Source: Escherichia phage EcWhh-1. Taken from it: a stretch of 64,000 nucleotides of DNA. Positions 15,725 to 46,848 of the stretch are shown in pieces (within the stretch, counting starts at the first letter, position 1; each line of letters opens with the position of its first letter). The stretch lies in the sequence record MH791409.1. One strand, 5' to 3'. The notes below the pieces were generated by a model. That model saw only the letters and a program-made list of their open reading frames with translations. It was not told the origin of the DNA and did not search any database. A program made the position numbers and the translations under genes.

Positions 15725-18700
15725 ATGGCTACTTTAAAACAGATACAATTTAAAAGAAGTAAAGTAGCTGGTGTACGTCCTACGCCAGCGCAGTTGGCTG
15801 AAGGCGAGCTGGCTATTAACTTAAAAGACCGTTTGTTATTTACCAAAGATGACACTGGAGCGATTATCGACCTTGGCTTTGCTAAAGGTGGTAATATCGA
15901 CGGAAACGTTATTCATAACGGTAACTACAACCAGACCGGCGATTATGCCCTGAAGGGTGCTTTTACCCAAACAGGTAGTTATACGACATCCGGAAGTATA
16001 ACAGCAAATGGCGATATCACAGCAAAATCTCGCCTAATGACAGATAACGGTGAAGTTCTTGTACGGGGTGCAGGAACTACCCACGTTCGATTCCAGGATT
16101 TGGCTGATGCGCGTGAAAGAGGCATAATTTATTCTCAAAACCGTGCTGGGGATACCAAGCAAATCTTAAATGTTCGTGTTCAGGATTACACTAATTCAAC
16201 ATCTAATATTTTTGCATTCAACGGTGACGGTTTATTTTATGCTCCATCTATTTCTGGTGGAACATCGGTAAAATCTCCAATAATTTATACTAATAAAGTT
16301 ATTACCGACGGTAAAGCCGCCGGCGATTACGATATATCTTCATTATCAAATAACACTCCATTGGCAGAAAGCGAAACGGCTATTAACCACCTCCGTGTTA
16401 TGCGAAATGCTGTAGGAGCAGGTATTTTCCACGAAGTTAATGTTAATGACGGAATAGCCTGGTATTCCGGAGATGGCTTAGACACTTATCTTTGGTCGTT
16501 TACCTGGTCCGGTGGATTGAAAGCCGGTCATTCTATTTCTGTAGGTCTTCCAGGTGGCCCTAAAGGATATTCTGAATTAGGGACGGCTTCAATTGCTCTT
16601 GGTGACAATAACACAGGTTTGAAATGGAAACAAGACGGCCAGTTCCATACAGTTAATAATGGAGCTTATACTTTACTTACAACTCCGACTGAAGTTACAA
16701 GCCTTAAACAGTTAGTTGCTGGTTATTCAACCAACGGTTCTGATTTAATTCTTCCTACAGCTCAAAACTATCCATTAGTTATTGTTAATACTACTAATGA
16801 TAAAAACGGCTTTGGTGATGGACAGACTCTTTTAGGTTATCATCAGAGTGGTAAATACCACCATTATTTCCGTGGTAAAGGTGTAACAAACGTTAACACT
16901 GATGGTGGGTTGTTGGTTACTCCTGGTAACGTTGAAGTCCGTGGTGGTTCGGTTAATATTGACGGTCGTGGTAACGCTTCCACTGTGATTTTTAAAGGAA
17001 GTACCACAGGATATAGTTCAGTTGATAATATAGAGCTCAAAGGTTGGGGTGACACTTTTAATACGGTAGGTGGTTCTCGTAAAAACGTATTGGAAACATC
17101 TGATGCTACCGGCTGGATGCACTATATTCAACGAACTACAGCAGGTAAAGTCGAATCTTATTTAAACGGCACGATGAACATCGTCGAAGGATTGTCTGTC
17201 AGTCAAGATACATCCTTAAAACGCAATCTGTATGTTTCCAATGAAATTAAAGTCCGCGCTGCTAGTGGTCTTCGTATTTGGAATGATAAGTATGGTGTTA
17301 TTTTTCGAAATTCAGAAGACCAGCTGCATATTATCCCAACCAATGCTAATGCTGGTGAAAGTGGCGGATTGGGTCCATTACGCCCATTAAGTATTATGTT
17401 AGACACTGGTCGGGTTAAAATCCCTAACTTAGAAGCTAAGCAGGTTTCAGGTGTATTGGAATTCATCACCACTCACGGCTCCTCTTATGCCAACCAGAAT
17501 ACGACTAAAGCCCCGTTGTATCAAACATTAGATTCTGCGTCTGCTCAAGCATTCTATCCTATTACTAAGCAGAAAAATACTGTTTCGAATGTAACTGTTA
17601 CTCAAGGTATGGACCGAACTACAAGTGAATACCGAATTGTTGCTCAAGGTGATTTGCTTGATGATGGTGATGATACAGGATTAAAATATTGGCGCTTTAC
17701 CAAAGAAGGTAACTTCATGGCTCAGAACCGCTTATATGCCGGTACAGCTTTCATGGATACCGAGGGTAATATTGTTGGTTCTATTTGGAACAAGTATAGC
17801 GGTGCTACTAACCTTGACGCAGCGGTGAATACTCGTGTTGGTAAAGGCGGGGACACAATGACAGGCCGCTTAACTCTTAAAACCAATTCAGACGCTATTG
17901 TTATTGATTATCCGGCAGATGAAGCGGGTTATGTTAAGGGTAAAAAAGGTGGTGTTGATAACTGGTATATAGGTAATGGTGGTGCTGATAACGGTTTAGC
18001 CTTCTGGAGCTTCCAATCCCAAGGTGGTATCAATATTAACCCGAATGGCGAGGTTATTTTATCTCCACAAGGTGCTTCAGTATTCAATGTAAACCGAGAC
18101 CGTATTTATATGAACGGTTCCAACTGGATTGCACATAAATCTGGTGCATGGGGTGACCAATGGGGTTTAGAAGCACCTTATTTCCTTGAGTTTGGTAGTG
18201 TGGGTGAAGACAGTTATTATCCTATTATTAAAGGTAAATCAGTAATTACTGGTCAAGGATATACTACTTCTGTTGAGCTTGGTATTAGACGTACACCTCA
18301 AGCATGGGGACAAGCGATAATTCGTGTAGGTAATGCCGAGCGCGGCGACGGTCCTGTAGGTATTTTCGAATTCCATTCTAGCGGACTATTCTACAGCCCT
18401 ACTATGGTTCAAACTCCTGCAATCGGTGTTGGTACTGTTAACGGATTAGGTGCTCCTAGTATTGCAATTGGTGATAATGATACAGGCTTATCACACGGTG
18501 GTGACGGCCGAATCAATATGGTTGCCAATGGGATTCATATTGCGTCATGGTCCAGCTCATACCATATCCATCAAGGTCTTTGGGATACCACTGGCGCTTT
18601 ATGGACTGAGCAAGGAAGAGCTATTATGTCTTATGGTCATCTTGTTCAGGCAAACGACAGCTATTCTACATATGTCCGTGACGTTTATGTCCGTTCTGAT

Positions 18701-32006: not shown

Positions 32007-32212
32007 AATTAGTTGCTTGAATCGACTCTATAAACTTGACCACGGGTTTGGTAAACTTCGCCGTCCCATGTTTCAACTGTGATAGTAACGTACTCGGCAA
32101 AAAGAGGACGTGTATCTGTCCAGAGATAACCATATTCACCTGTGACGAGCGTAACCCAGTACTTTCTCATAAAGTCTCCTTTTATACGGTACTCATGTAC
32201 CGTACGTATTTA

Positions 32213-34033
32213 TTATGACATCCAAGCCTTACGCAGCTGTGGGTCGTTTCCAAGGAGCATTTCGAACTGGTCTTTCCAATCTTCAGGTAATTGAACTACA
32301 TCGAATTTAGGGTCTTGAATCATTCGACGGTATTCAGCCTTCTCAAGAGAACCGAGTCCTTTAATATAACGAATAGAATGCTTAGGTAGAGAGTCCTTAG
32401 CTTTGGTATAACTAGGTACATCATAGAACCATTCCTGTTCTTTACCAACCTGAGCAATGATTACAGGAGTCTTACAGAAACGAATTCGTCCCTGTTCAAA
32501 CAATTCCGGCCACTGACTAAAGAAAGCTAATAACGAAGGATAAATCGAACCAGTACCATCCACATCGGCGTCAGTCATGATAGCGATATTACGATAGTTG
32601 GTTTTATCTGCAGGTTCACCAATAACCAGTCCAGTGATTGCACAGATATCAAACAATTCTTTGTTCTTCATGATATCGGCAGCAGTCATACCCCAGGTAT
32701 TCATAACCTTTCCGCGTAACGGATAACCACCTTGGAGGTCTTTATTACGAACTTCAATGAAAGGACCCATTGCAGAATCACCTTCCGTAAGGAATAAAGT
32801 CGTATCAGCATCTTTGCCATACATATTGGCTTTAATATGCTTATGGACCTTGGCTTTCAAAGCTTTCTTAGCAGCTTTTGTTTCGGCAGCCTTTTCAGCA
32901 GCGAGCTTACGTGCTAATGCAGCCTCAATAATAGGCATCAACACAGCTTCATTAGCTAATATGGATTTAGCTAGTTTTTTAGAATCTAACTGAATATGCG
33001 AACGAATTTCACCATACGGCGATGTTAGACGTTCTTTAGTCTGGGAATCGAATCGCATATTTTTCATGCTTCGCACAAACATCAGCATCGTTAAACATTC
33101 TTTAATACGGGCTTTGGTTACTTCAATTTTAAACTTACGCTTAATTTGTGGGATAAGCTCGTCACAAATATCATCCATAACACATTCAACGTGGTGACCA
33201 CCGTTTTTAGTATGAATATTGTTCACGTACGTTAATTGTCGGAATCCATCAGGAGAGCGTCCTATAGATATCGAACAATTGTCCTGTTCTTGGATAATGC
33301 ACTCTTCGTCGAACTGTTTGGCGTATTTTTTAAACGACCCTTGGATTTTCTTACCATTAAATTTAAATTCAATATCAGGATAAATGACTGCTAAGGTTTG
33401 AAGTCGGTCAATGGTAATATCTTGATAAATTTTTTCAAATTGGTTCATTTCAAAGTGGCTAAAATCAGGTACAAATTCTACTTTGGTTCCATTAGTTTTA
33501 GATGGCTTTGATTTCCAAGAAACGTTTTCAGCGTTATTAGAGCAGTTAACAATAAGTTCAGATTTACCATCAGAAGTTGTGCCTGTAAACATCACAGAGA
33601 ATATATTTGTTAAACTGGAACCGACACCGTTTTGACCACCGGTAACACGTTCAGAGTCATCACCAAAGTTACCGCCTGCCTTGGTTTTTGTCCAAGCCGC
33701 GACGGGTCCTGGGATTTCTTCACCTTCAGGAGTAACCACTAGAGCTTGAGGAATACCACGGCCATTATCTTCTACAGTAACCTTATTAGAACTTAAATCA
33801 ATGCTTACTGAAATTTTGTTGGCAAACTTAAAATTAGTACGAATAGCTTCATCAACTGAGTTATCGATGATTTCATCAACTAATTTAAGAACACCCGCTA
33901 CATACCGTACTTTGGTAAACTCGCCGAAAAGAAATCGTTCATGGTCTTCAAATGATACACTTCCGATGTACATTCCAGGACGCTTAAGAACGTGTTCCTT
34001 ATCTGAAAGCATTTCAATTTTATTATCAATCAT
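32213..34033 (-). CDS. 39: DNA topoisomerase II large subunit gp39 (GyrB-like), full-length single ORF
   Basis: 606-aa ORF with HATPase_c and TOPRIM motifs; about 90 aa longer than T4 gp39, consistent with fusion of the gene 39 and gene 60 coding regions. Confidence 0.93.
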   Translation of the reverse strand: MIDNKIEMLSDKEHVLKRPGMYIGSVSFEDHERFLFGEFTKVRYVAGVLKLVDEIIDNSVDEAIRTNFKFANKISVSIDLSSNKVTVEDNGRGIPQALVVTPEGEEIPGPVAAWTKTKAGGNFGDDSERVTGGQNGVGSSLTNIFSVMFTGTTSDGKSELIVNCSNNAENVSWKSKPSKTNGTKVEFVPDFSHFEMNQFEKIYQDITIDRLQTLAVIYPDIEFKFNGKKIQGSFKKYAKQFDEECIIQEQDNCSISIGRSPDGFRQLTYVNNIHTKNGGHHVECVMDDICDELIPQIKRKFKIEVTKARIKECLTMLMFVRSMKNMRFDSQTKERLTSPYGEIRSHIQLDSKKLAKSILANEAVLMPIIEAALARKLAAEKAAETKAAKKALKAKVHKHIKANMYGKDADTTLFLTEGDSAMGPFIEVRNKDLQGGYPLRGKVMNTWGMTAADIMKNKELFDICAITGLVIGEPADKTNYRNIAIMTDADVDGTGSIYPSLLAFFSQWPELFEQGRIRFCKTPVIIAQVGKEQEWFYDVPSYTKAKDSLPKHSIRYIKGLGSLEKAEYRRMIQDPKFDVVQLPEDWKDQFEMLLGNDPQLRKAWMS

Positions 34034-44598: not shown

Positions 44599-45138
44599 TT
44601 AATAACCTCGGTCTTGACGAGCAAAGTTCTCGGCATTTTTCAGGTAATACAGTTTAAAGATTTCTTCAGCGGTCAGTCCAAGACCCTGGAACATATTCAG
44701 AACAAAGTGCAGAATATCAATCATTTCGAATTTAATTTCGAGCTGGTCTTCAGGAGACAAATCGTTAATCAGGGTTTCACGACGTTCAGCATGTTGAGCT
44801 TTCCAAGGCTTCCATACTGCAGATGCATCTTTTTCACCATTGCTCATACCACCAAGAGAAGTCAGAAGTTCACGGAATTCGTCATCAATATAATCTTTCT
44901 GGTTGCGAAGCCAATCGACAACTTCACCCGCAGTGGCCAAATCATCAGGATGACGATTATATTCAGGCTTATCTTTAGCTAAACGAACCTGCAAAGATTT
45001 CTGCATATCAAGCATAACCTGCAGAGGGTCTTTATCTTCGTGAATCAGAGCATTAAAATAAGCTTCTTCAGCTTTATCGGCACCGGCAATCAGTTGAGAA
45101 CATTCATTAAAATGAGCCATTATATTTTTCCTTATCAA
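44599..45138 (-). CDS. 56: dCTP pyrophosphatase gp56 (MazG-like)
   Basis: 179-aa ORF; from MAHFNECSQLIAG the sequence matches recalled T4 gp56 through the C-terminal FKLYYLKNAENFARQDRGY. Confidence 0.92.
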   Translation of the reverse strand: MIRKNIMAHFNECSQLIAGADKAEEAYFNALIHEDKDPLQVMLDMQKSLQVRLAKDKPEYNRHPDDLATAGEVVDWLRNQKDYIDDEFRELLTSLGGMSNGEKDASAVWKPWKAQHAERRETLINDLSPEDQLEIKFEMIDILHFVLNMFQGLGLTAEEIFKLYYLKNAENFARQDRGY

Positions 45139-45214
45139 TTCATTTGTTAGTAAGTTAGATAATTATAAACTGCTAGATTAAAGCGAATAAATATTAATTT
45201 AACAGGAGGATAAC

Positions 45215-45415
45215 ATGGGTAGTATTTTTTACCAAATCTGGAAATTGGCTGAAAAGAAAGACAAGAAAATGATGTTAGGTTTTCTTGCGCTAGACGTATT
45301 CCTTTGGAATCTTTTAGTAGTTCCTGTAGCCGCTAGCCAAGGGGTAATTTTACCAGCGGTTACAATGGAACACGTATTAAGCATAATTGGATTCTTTAGC
45401 GGAGTTCCTGTCTAA
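45215..45415 (+). CDS. hypothetical small membrane protein on the opposite strand
   Basis: 66-aa plus-strand ORF with RBS AGGAGG 7 nt upstream; hydrophobic; convergent with gene 61. Confidence 0.5.
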   Translation: MGSIFYQIWKLAEKKDKKMMLGFLALDVFLWNLLVVPVAASQGVILPAVTMEHVLSIIGFFSGVPV

Positions 45416-46440
45416 ATTTTAGAATATTTTGAAAGCCTCATTTTTGCCATTAACCCTTGGGCTATATTAGCTTTCATATACGCCAATATATCATTTATAT
45501 CAGCTTTATCTTTCATAACCATATCATTTATATCTTTAGAAGGCCATGGAGCCTTGTCCCAGAATAGGACCCTTTCGCCGGCATCAACTAATCGTTGCAT
45601 ACGCTTAATTGTGTCAGGATGACGGGGTTCATTGTCCATTACCCAAGCACGAGTTTCTTTACATGGAACCATAGCCAAGTCCAACGACCCACCAGTAATT
45701 GCTATTGCATTAGGTACGAATAATGAATCAATAGGACCTTCCATTACCCACACCAATTGACGTTCGTCAACTGTATCCATTCCATATATTTTTGTAGCTT
45801 GGTCATGAGCTTTTATTGTAATATATTTTTGTGGAGCATCTTTACGCAAGGCTCGGCCCTGAAAACTTTCAATTTGTTTATTCTTATTGAAAATTGGAAT
45901 AACCAAACGTGGTTCAGGCATTTCTTTGGAATAGGTCCCCGGATTAACAGAATTCACCAATGCAGGCCATTCTTTAGTAAACCATAACCGATTCCATTTA
46001 TTTTCAGGAATGCACCGCAGAGTTACATACTTAATAATAGGATGGTCCTTAGGCATTCTATCTAATCGTTCACAGAAATTAAGCTTTTCGATGACAGGCA
46101 TCTTAGCTTTAATTTTTTCAGATATCTCCACCTTAGGTGCAGCTTGTCTCCCAAACGATTGCTCTTTATGTTTCTCAAGAATATATTCGCGATATAAATC
46201 AGGCTCATATTCGTATAGGTACTTCTTAATTCCTGCCGAATAATCACAGTTAAAACAGTGTAGCATTACAGAGCCGTCATTGGCCGGATAGGCCCAGAAT
46301 CGAGCTTTGTTCTCATCCTTTTGGGAGTCGCCACATACACGACAACGACAGTTTAATTTAAAATCACTACCAGTTACTTGTCTGAATTTAGGTTGGTAAT
46401 TCAAGGCACGTACAGCAAATTCTCTATCGACATATGACAT
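45412..46440 (-). CDS. 61: DNA primase gp61
   Basis: 342-aa ORF with N-terminal zinc-binding Cys cluster (CRCRVCGDS...CFNCDYS) and TOPRIM-like C-terminal domain. Confidence 0.92.
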   Translation of the reverse strand: MSYVDREFAVRALNYQPKFRQVTGSDFKLNCRCRVCGDSQKDENKARFWAYPANDGSVMLHCFNCDYSAGIKKYLYEYEPDLYREYILEKHKEQSFGRQAAPKVEISEKIKAKMPVIEKLNFCERLDRMPKDHPIIKYVTLRCIPENKWNRLWFTKEWPALVNSVNPGTYSKEMPEPRLVIPIFNKNKQIESFQGRALRKDAPQKYITIKAHDQATKIYGMDTVDERQLVWVMEGPIDSLFVPNAIAITGGSLDLAMVPCKETRAWVMDNEPRHPDTIKRMQRLVDAGERVLFWDKAPWPSKDINDMVMKDKADINDILAYMKANIAQGLMAKMRLSKYSKI

Positions 46441-46656
46441 TATTTTTCCTTGGGCTCTAAATTAATAGAGCCATTATATCATTCGTTTTCGGATTTTTCT
46501 TTACGCTTTTTGGATGGGATTTGTTCAGGCCCTTTGTTGACGACTGCACCTGAGGTAGTTCCGGAGGCAATATTAGATGGGTTTCCACCTGCATCGCCTG
46601 CGACCATATCTTCGTTCATAACTTCTTTAAAAGATTTCATAGGCTCCTGGCCTTAT

Positions 46657-46848
46657 TTATATTACGAAAATAGCTTTGTCACCGTTGGCGTCAGTGACTT
46701 CGTACGTATCTTCGTGGTAAAGTGGGATAATCCAGGTCACACCATCATCAGCAATAACATGGATAGCTTCTTGGTCTTTTGATACGATTTCATATTCTTC
46801 GAACAACTCGAATACAGAAATCTTAGAGCCCGTACACATTGCACTCAT
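46657..46848 (-). CDS. hypothetical protein
   Basis: 63-aa ORF. Confidence 0.45.
   Translation of the reverse strand: MSAMCTGSKISVFELFEEYEIVSKDQEAIHVIADDGVTWIIPLYHEDTYEVTDANGDKAIFVI

Follow-up and report, generated by a model that had tools for sequence, protein, structure and literature searches.

Class II holins and pinholins, of which S68 of phage 21 is an example, are very small proteins made late, with one or two hydrophobic segments and a cytoplasmic N-terminus. Phage T4 also has two small envelope proteins, Imm and Sp, which serve early in infection to exclude superinfecting phage. Late promoters of T4 have the sequence TATAAATA at -13 to -6, and T4 late transcripts are found in either polarity (PMC2988020; PMC1524935). 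A list of 50 T4 late sites contains 32 perfect ones, 9 with A at -13 and others that each deviate at some other single position (PMC2988020). Antisense transcription is also on record for T4, with an antisense RNA of gene 32 (Belin et al. 1987, cited in PMC3014915) and 150 phage TSSs mapped by dRNA-seq, 22 of them antisense (bioRxiv 10.1101/2024.04.04.588121). In the family considered here, the T4-subtype members are called dam.1 in T4T, RB32ORF030w in RB51 and RB69ORF029w in RB69. Our literature search found no paper on dam.1, RB69ORF029w, RB32ORF030w or the protein family phrog_2024, and the main text of the CRISPRi-ART paper does not mention the gene.

We analysed a 64,000-nt stretch of Escherichia phage EcWhh-1 (MH791409.1), hereafter the window, which is 99% identical to UP19, MN04 and JS98 by megablast and belongs to the JS98 group of Dhakavirus. 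An earlier note on this DNA had pointed to a hydrophobic 66-aa ORF with a strong AGGAGG ribosome-binding site on the plus strand. Both are present: the ORF listing of the window contains an ATG-initiated frame at 45215..45415 (+) encoding MGSIFYQIWKLAEKKDKKMMLGFLALDVFLWNLLVVPVAASQGVILPAVTMEHVLSIIGFFSGVPV, and a Shine-Dalgarno (SD) sequence AGGAGG occupies 45204..45209 (+), with a 5-nt spacer to the ATG. We annotate this frame, on its phrog_2024 match and codon statistics, as the CDS of a probable small membrane protein of the Dam.1/RB69ORF029w/PHROG 2024 family, JS98 subtype. On one side, a 94-nt divergent intergenic region separates the ORF from the dCTPase gene 56 (44599..45120, -), its divergent neighbour in EcWhh-1. 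On the other side lies the DNA primase gene 61, its conserved convergent neighbour; since the primase gene spans 45412..46440 (-), the two stop codons interlock in a 4-nt overlap (45412..45415), just as the earlier note had described. The ORF had also been presented as the exception among minus-strand neighbours. The annotation of UP19, 99% identical to the window, bears this out: of the 23 CDS annotated within +/-3 kb of it (7.8 kb), the ORF is the sole plus-strand one and the other 22 are all minus-strand. The identical ORF is annotated there as a 'hypothetical protein'.

Comparison of relatives indicated that the ORF encodes a protein. In nine 201-nt orthologues, the variable sites were distributed over codon positions 1/2/3 as 26/15/59, and the five alternative frames all contained stops in every relative checked. 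Between genera, pS was about 0.8 (saturated) and pN 0.09-0.2, and omega was 0.07-0.22 in unsaturated pairs. The pN/pS of the small ORF (0.12-0.24) was close to that of the primase gene (0.13-0.29), and the two are similarly constrained. Every relative also retained an equivalent of the SD sequence (AGGAGG, GGAGG, AAGGAG or AGGAG). Judged by these codon and signal patterns, the ORF at 45215-45415 is a genuine protein-coding gene. A 51-aa ORF on the opposite strand (45229..45384, -) was rejected because its frame has stops in every relative checked. Against Bp7, a phage of the same genus, synonymous divergence was higher in the small ORF (pS 0.79) than in the adjacent primase gene (pS 0.44), which suggests a recombination boundary at the homing-endonuclease insertion in Bp7.

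The product matched the profile of phrog_2024 ('unknown function') at E=6.5e-28 over residues 1-64 of 66, and no other PHROGs profile matched at E<=1. As a 'hypothetical protein' (T4 dam.1) the gene had thus been catalogued before, and nearly all coliphages of the T4 type have it. A tblastn search with the window protein retrieved the JS98 subtype in 121 phage records, comprising Dhakavirus, Marfa-type phages of Klebsiella, Gaprivervirus, phages of Enterobacter and Pectobacterium, Gelderlandvirus and Kanagawavirus. The T4/RB69 subtype was found in 693 records, and a query from a metagenomic T4-like contig (P0073) in 279, among them Slopekvirus-type Klebsiella phages, Citrobacter phage Moon and Salmonella phage S16; these three record sets overlap in part. 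BLASTP aligned the T4 protein and the window protein with 44% identity over a 25-residue core (E=2e-7) that reads LWN(F/L)(I/L)xxPVAxxxGVxxPxVT. A profile built from both subtypes and searched against 1.8 billion representative proteins returned 16 clusters, all from the PHROG 2024/Dam.1 family. The contigs behind five of the novel clusters were of two kinds: two were T4-like, and three carried the gene after an endonuclease VII gene, not facing primase.

The reference annotations do not reflect this distribution. The T4 record NC_000866 has a 309-bp unannotated gap between dam and gene 61. It contains a plus-strand 66-aa ORF (17738-17938; L002 4239-4439) that overlaps the stop of gene 61 by 4 nt and has its own SD sequence and GATAAATA box; the sequence upstream of it, GATAAATATTAATTTAAAGGAGG, is nearly identical to that in the window. 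This dam.1 ORF is annotated in T4T (HM137666), is missing from NC_000866, and is likewise present but unannotated in the reference records of JS98, JS10 and IME08. A conserved gene under strong purifying selection is thus missing from the reference annotation of all four phages, and genome-wide screens built on these records therefore skip it; the HIDEN-SEQ T4 gene table, for example, has no dam.1 entry. The value of the finding lies mostly here, in a gap in the annotation of several reference genomes. Where the ORF is annotated, its name is sometimes odd: it is a 'DNA packaging ATPase' in Klebsiella phages SAKp28, EI and MY02, a second 'dCTP pyrophosphatase' in dhaeg and dhabil, and a 'Holin' in OE5505 (UniProt). 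The implausible names look like annotation-transfer errors.

Some genomes carry two members of the family. In Gaprivervirus VR25 the copies are diverged paralogues in tandem, first the T4/RB69 subtype (L007 1995-2192) and then, 8 nt later, the JS98 subtype (L007 2201-2401) with an SD of its own; an ATAAATA box is found only at the first copy. SP18, P896 and DCP80 have an apparently complete first copy and a truncated second one. Phage DCP80 (PQ671644) has, besides its primase-adjacent copy (L033 2811-3008), an unannotated 57-aa member (L032 4792-4965) that overlaps the end of an endonuclease VII gene and is followed by genes for soluble proteins of 183 and 99 aa, with an endolysin nearby. This genome, which measures 141 kb and is filed under Gaprivervirus, may be mosaic or mis-assembled. 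Searches by tblastn with the 57-aa ORF of DCP80 and with the distant member P0077 found no further isolates.

We then considered what kind of protein the family represents. In most members the N-terminal segment is basic, with 4-8 K/R, and hydropathy shows a hydrophobic stretch of about 23 residues after it. The remaining 25-residue tail is moderately hydrophobic, with 0-2 K/R across the family and none in the window protein; it carries one conserved acidic residue and ends in hydrophobic residues. An AF2 model from a 16-sequence alignment (mean pLDDT 74) has helices at 2-11, 14-41 and 51-62, of which one is a clear transmembrane (TM) helix, and a C-terminal tail with pLDDT of 56-71. For RB69ORF029w, one TM segment at 21-41 has been predicted (Nolan et al.). 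The positive-inside rule predicts a cytoplasmic N-terminus, and the product is most probably an inner-membrane micro-protein of 66 aa in N-in orientation; the model would allow the tail to be periplasmic, a re-entrant segment or a second TM helix. The tail region carries the conserved motif WN..P.A...G..LP....E. The window protein has the core form of this motif, W-N-x4-P-x-A-x3-G-x2-(L/I)-P-x4-(E/D), after its basic N-terminus, and residues W31, N32, P37, G43 and P47 vary little or not at all in the alignments, followed by E/D near 52. All of these map to the TM helix, in its outer half, or to the loop after it, a clustering that speaks for specific binding to another membrane protein and against a mere anchor. 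Searching Pfam, NCBIfam and the PDB by sequence, whether from the protein alone or from an alignment of 21 members, yielded no significant match, and Foldseek against viral and PDB structures returned family members only.

The sequence upstream of the gene bears on its time of expression. A late-promoter-like box of the gp55 type, AATAAATA, occupies 45186..45193 (+), 10 nt upstream of the SD, and places the predicted start near 45199. It departs from TATAAATA at one position (A at -13), the commonest natural variant. In the window, T4, Bp7, Marfa, RB69, VR25, PM2, Kosakonia 305, PEi20, L023 and L031, a NATAAATA box precedes the ATG by 13-21 nt, and it is kept even in intergenic spaces as short as 22-34 bp. 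The box takes the form GATAAATA in T4 and the perfect TATAAATA in Bp7, Marfa and Kosakonia 305; that of SEA1 is more degenerate than the T4 form. Within the 64-kb window ATAAATA is rare, occurring five times on the plus strand and seven times on the minus strand, and 4/5 plus-strand copies precede an SD-ATG. One of these belongs to the ORF under study, and the other three precede a 1323-aa gp34-like tail-fibre ORF, a 215-aa ORF at the gene 36 position and a 217-aa ORF at the holin t position, names that come from a reading of the translations and from T4 gene order. One minus-strand copy precedes an ORF that by position matches the 'virion structural protein' of UP19 (soc in Bp7 and IME08). 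Against a late promoter, none of the RB69 late sites predicted by HMM (Nolan et al. 2006) is located before RB69ORF029w. Scans of the region for sigma-70 promoters gave no hit better than expected from shuffled sequence, and Rfam had no match in 44900-45800. The earlier note had proposed a late-expressed membrane protein. The basic N-terminus and the long hydrophobic helix agree with the membrane part of this proposal; for the late part we infer, from the conserved AATAAATA box, transcription by gp55-RNA polymerase. The early replication cluster would then contain, in this gene, one of its few late-type members on the plus strand.

The late box directly abuts, back to back, a MotA-type middle promoter of gene 56. 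A MotA-box-like GCTTTA (45179..45184, -) is followed 11 nt downstream by the -10 hexamer TATAAT (45162..45167, -), and by its elements and spacing this divergent pair is a classic T4 middle promoter for gene 56. The arrangement GCTT(T/A/C)A, 11-12 nt and a -10 hexamer recurs wherever gene 56 is the neighbour, the hexamer being TATAAT in Bp7, VR25 and SEA1, TATTAT in PM2 and TAGAAT in RB69. A middle promoter, Pm:16038, had been predicted at the same spot in RB69 (Nolan et al. 2006). Two further late-type boxes were noticed on the minus strand of the window. A perfect TATAAATA with AGGAG at 46654-46661 (-) stands directly before a 53-aa ORF (46479-46640, -) located just downstream of the primase start, in the position of 61.1, and suggests late expression of another small gene inside the 'early' cluster. 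A AATAAATA at 32206-32213 (-) lies upstream of a second 53-aa ORF (32009-32170, -), at the end of a 606-aa topoisomerase-like ORF (32213..34033, -) called gene 39-like by reading of its translation. There the box is followed by an inverted repeat (cgtacggtac...gtaccgta) and then by the SD and ATG of the 53-aa ORF, which may represent a late-promoter and hairpin arrangement.

Taken together, the data are best explained by an ancestral accessory gene, the JS98-subtype orthologue of T4 dam.1, that would encode a late-transcribed inner-membrane micro-protein. From sequence comparison and modelling, we put the probability of this explanation as a whole at about 0.75. Under this explanation, gp55-RNA polymerase would transcribe the gene late from the AATAAATA box at 45186-45193, and the transcript would have a leader of about 16 nt carrying the optimal AGGAGG. 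The 66-aa product would insert in the inner membrane with its basic N-terminus in the cytoplasm, a TM helix at about 14-41 and an uncharged hydrophobic tail of 25 residues. Its conserved residues (W31, N32, P37, G43, P47 and the acidic residue at about 52) would contact another membrane protein, and the protein might tune a late envelope process, for example the timing of lysis.

Transposon sequencing of Bas37, a close relative of T4, offers a view of how much the gene matters to the phage. The gene bas37_0144 (91945-92145, +) is 201 nt long and has the 4-nt primase overlap; because of this matching geometry, and not on sequence, we infer that it is the dam.1 orthologue. It was disrupted at 20/24 TA sites and classed 'Non-essential', and three host comparisons gave log2FC of +0.33, +0.20 and -0.28, each with q=1; the T4 annotation employed in the same study lacks the gene. 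The gene is probably dispensable in the laboratory. As to its role, our best guess, made with low confidence, is a late modulator of the envelope or of lysis, to which the presumed late timing, the predicted membrane location and one distant homologue in a cluster with a lysozyme point. A more specific version, possible but unlikely in our estimate, is that the micro-protein binds the TM region of an inner-membrane protein of phage or host (e.g. holin T) and thereby tunes lysis timing or inhibition. The T4 and JS98 subtypes would in that case perhaps reflect co-evolution with the partner, and the late transcript might silence primase as well. If the protein did help to control lysis, or its transcript to silence primase late, this would add modestly but truly to T4 biology; the probable membrane micro-protein is an uncharacterised member of the best-studied phage family.

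It is also conceivable that the protein is itself a small holin, pinholin or antiholin, which forms or gates inner-membrane lesions late in infection alongside the T4-type holin T. The size of the family members (52-82 aa), their probable late promoter and their N-in topology resemble class II holins, and 2/21 members match the Pfam family GTA_holin_3TM, weakly (E=0.08); yet no holin family in Pfam, NCBIfam or PHROGs gave a significant match. One T4-subtype member is labelled 'Holin' in UniProt, but this is an annotation made without a test. The genomic context is similarly divided. The distant member P0077 (contig L026), which matches phrog_2024 at E=1.3e-9, stands first, behind a CTAAATA box, in a cluster of four co-directional genes for proteins of 82, 180, 109 and 161 aa, the last of them a T4-e-like lysozyme. 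However, the two middle proteins, of 180 and 109 aa, have no TM segment and are soluble, and one of them is weakly tail-like, so the cluster cannot clearly be called a lysis cassette. Moreover, the gene adjoins primase and not endolysin in the T4-like phages examined, and at the holin t position the window has a separate 217-aa plus-strand ORF, preceded by a TATAAATA of its own. Holins typically have a hydrophilic C-terminal tail with charges, whereas this C-terminus is uncharged and hydrophobic, and the presumed Bas37 orthologue is non-essential. Assignment to the holins thus founders on profile similarity, C-terminal charge, location and essentiality, and we consider a holin-type function quite doubtful.

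The geometry of the locus raises another question, namely whether selection acts on the RNA and the peptide is secondary. The earlier note had stated that transcription through the ORF would be antisense to the early unit, and as geometry this is right. A terminator scan of 44900-46600 found no terminator-like site, the junction of the ORF and gene 61 included; the convergent 4-nt overlap leaves no room for one, and a weak plus-strand hairpin (46641-46653) occurs only beyond gene 61, where it overlaps the region of the minus-strand box at 46654-46661. Lacking a terminator, a late transcript would therefore continue antisense into the primase gene, and late head-on or antisense transcription through gene 61 and the replication genes upstream of it could help to shut off early and middle expression. 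That the ORF is tightly linked with gene 61, at the 3' end of the latter, while its upstream neighbour changes fits such a function, as does the transcription of both strands at different times at several T4 sites (PMC2988020). Nevertheless, the amino-acid sequence is under purifying selection in the plus frame while synonymous sites are saturated, and both SD and ATG are conserved. The distant members keep the motif after endonuclease VII, away from primase, and Bp7 keeps the ORF although a homing-endonuclease gene separates it from gene 61. Given this selection at the protein level, an antisense effect cannot be the main constraint, and a primarily RNA-level function appears very improbable; an antisense effect on gene 61 in addition to the role of the protein is possible.

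Comparison of the intergenic region in relatives found the ORF conserved across T4-like phages, T4 included. All T4-like genomes and contigs examined (Dhaka-, Tequatro-, Mosig-, Gapriver-, Mosuguk-, Gelderland-, Kanagawa- and Marfavirus, and metagenomic T4-like contigs) have it on the plus strand, running towards the 3' end of gene 61, and the 4-nt overlap with gene 61 is also found in T4, RB69, Marfa, VR25, Kosakonia 305 and Bas37. Its upstream neighbour is variable and may be gene 56, dam, a homing endonuclease or unrelated hypotheticals. This constancy of the locus despite a variable neighbour rules out a recent insertion, and by the same comparison the gene is an ancestral accessory gene of T-even-type phages and the JS98-subtype orthologue of T4 dam.1. 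The earlier suggestion of an insertion is accordingly rejected, and with it the idea that a mobile element, for instance a homing-endonuclease cassette, brought the ORF as cargo; both have a negligible chance of being right. Homing-endonuclease genes do favour the 56-61 interval as a hot spot (mobE between gene 56 and the ORF in IME08, L034 782-1438; one between the ORF and gene 61 in Bp7, L003 2208-2963; one upstream of the ORF in Kosakonia 305, L010 1023-1673; segF beside gene 56 in T4) and the ORF exceeds primase in pS against Bp7 (0.79 and 0.44). The ORF is nevertheless kept with or without such genes, in the same position and orientation to gene 61 in all Tevenvirinae genera and Marfavirus records sampled, T4 among them; it is accompanied by neither repeats nor integrase-like genes, and the tandem subtypes of Gaprivervirus suggest old duplication and not mobility. 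The mobE-type insert between gene 56 and the ORF is about 630 bp long, and the 56-61 interval of the window has no homing-endonuclease gene.

Set beside the systems introduced above, the gene shares features with several of them. It is like class II holins and pinholins in being tiny, probably expressed late and equipped with a cytoplasmic N-terminus and a hydrophobic segment, and unlike class II holins in having no sequence or profile similarity to them, no charged C-terminal tail and, in the T4-like phages examined, no adjacent endolysin. It also differs from two-TM holins, its model having one long helix (14-41) and one short helix (51-62). With T4 Imm and Sp (spackle) it has in common a small size, a non-essential character, a probable place in the envelope and a position among replication genes, and in UP19 the spackle gene is about 2 kb from the small ORF. 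In the T4-type records examined, however, imm and sp are on the minus (early/middle) strand, whereas the small ORF is on the opposite strand behind a late-type promoter. A place in the Imm/Sp group was rejected: phrog_2024 is the sole match, the strand is the opposite one and no sigma-70-like promoter rises above chance. As in the late antisense transcription of T4 (the gene 32 RNA and the TSSs from dRNA-seq), a late-type promoter faces an early/middle unit, but unlike the non-coding antisense RNA of T4 it fronts a conserved ORF under purifying selection. The closest counterparts remain T4T Dam.1 (ADJ39749), RB69ORF029w (NP_861719) and RB32ORF030w, which are of the same family and at the same locus as the window protein. 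The members of this T4/RB69 subtype are 63-74 aa long, on the plus strand and convergent with gene 61, with the 4-nt overlap in most; overall identity to the window protein, which is of the JS98 subtype, is only about 18-22%, and the two have in common the NATAAATA and SD module and the motif W-N...P.A...G..(L/I)P....(E/D).
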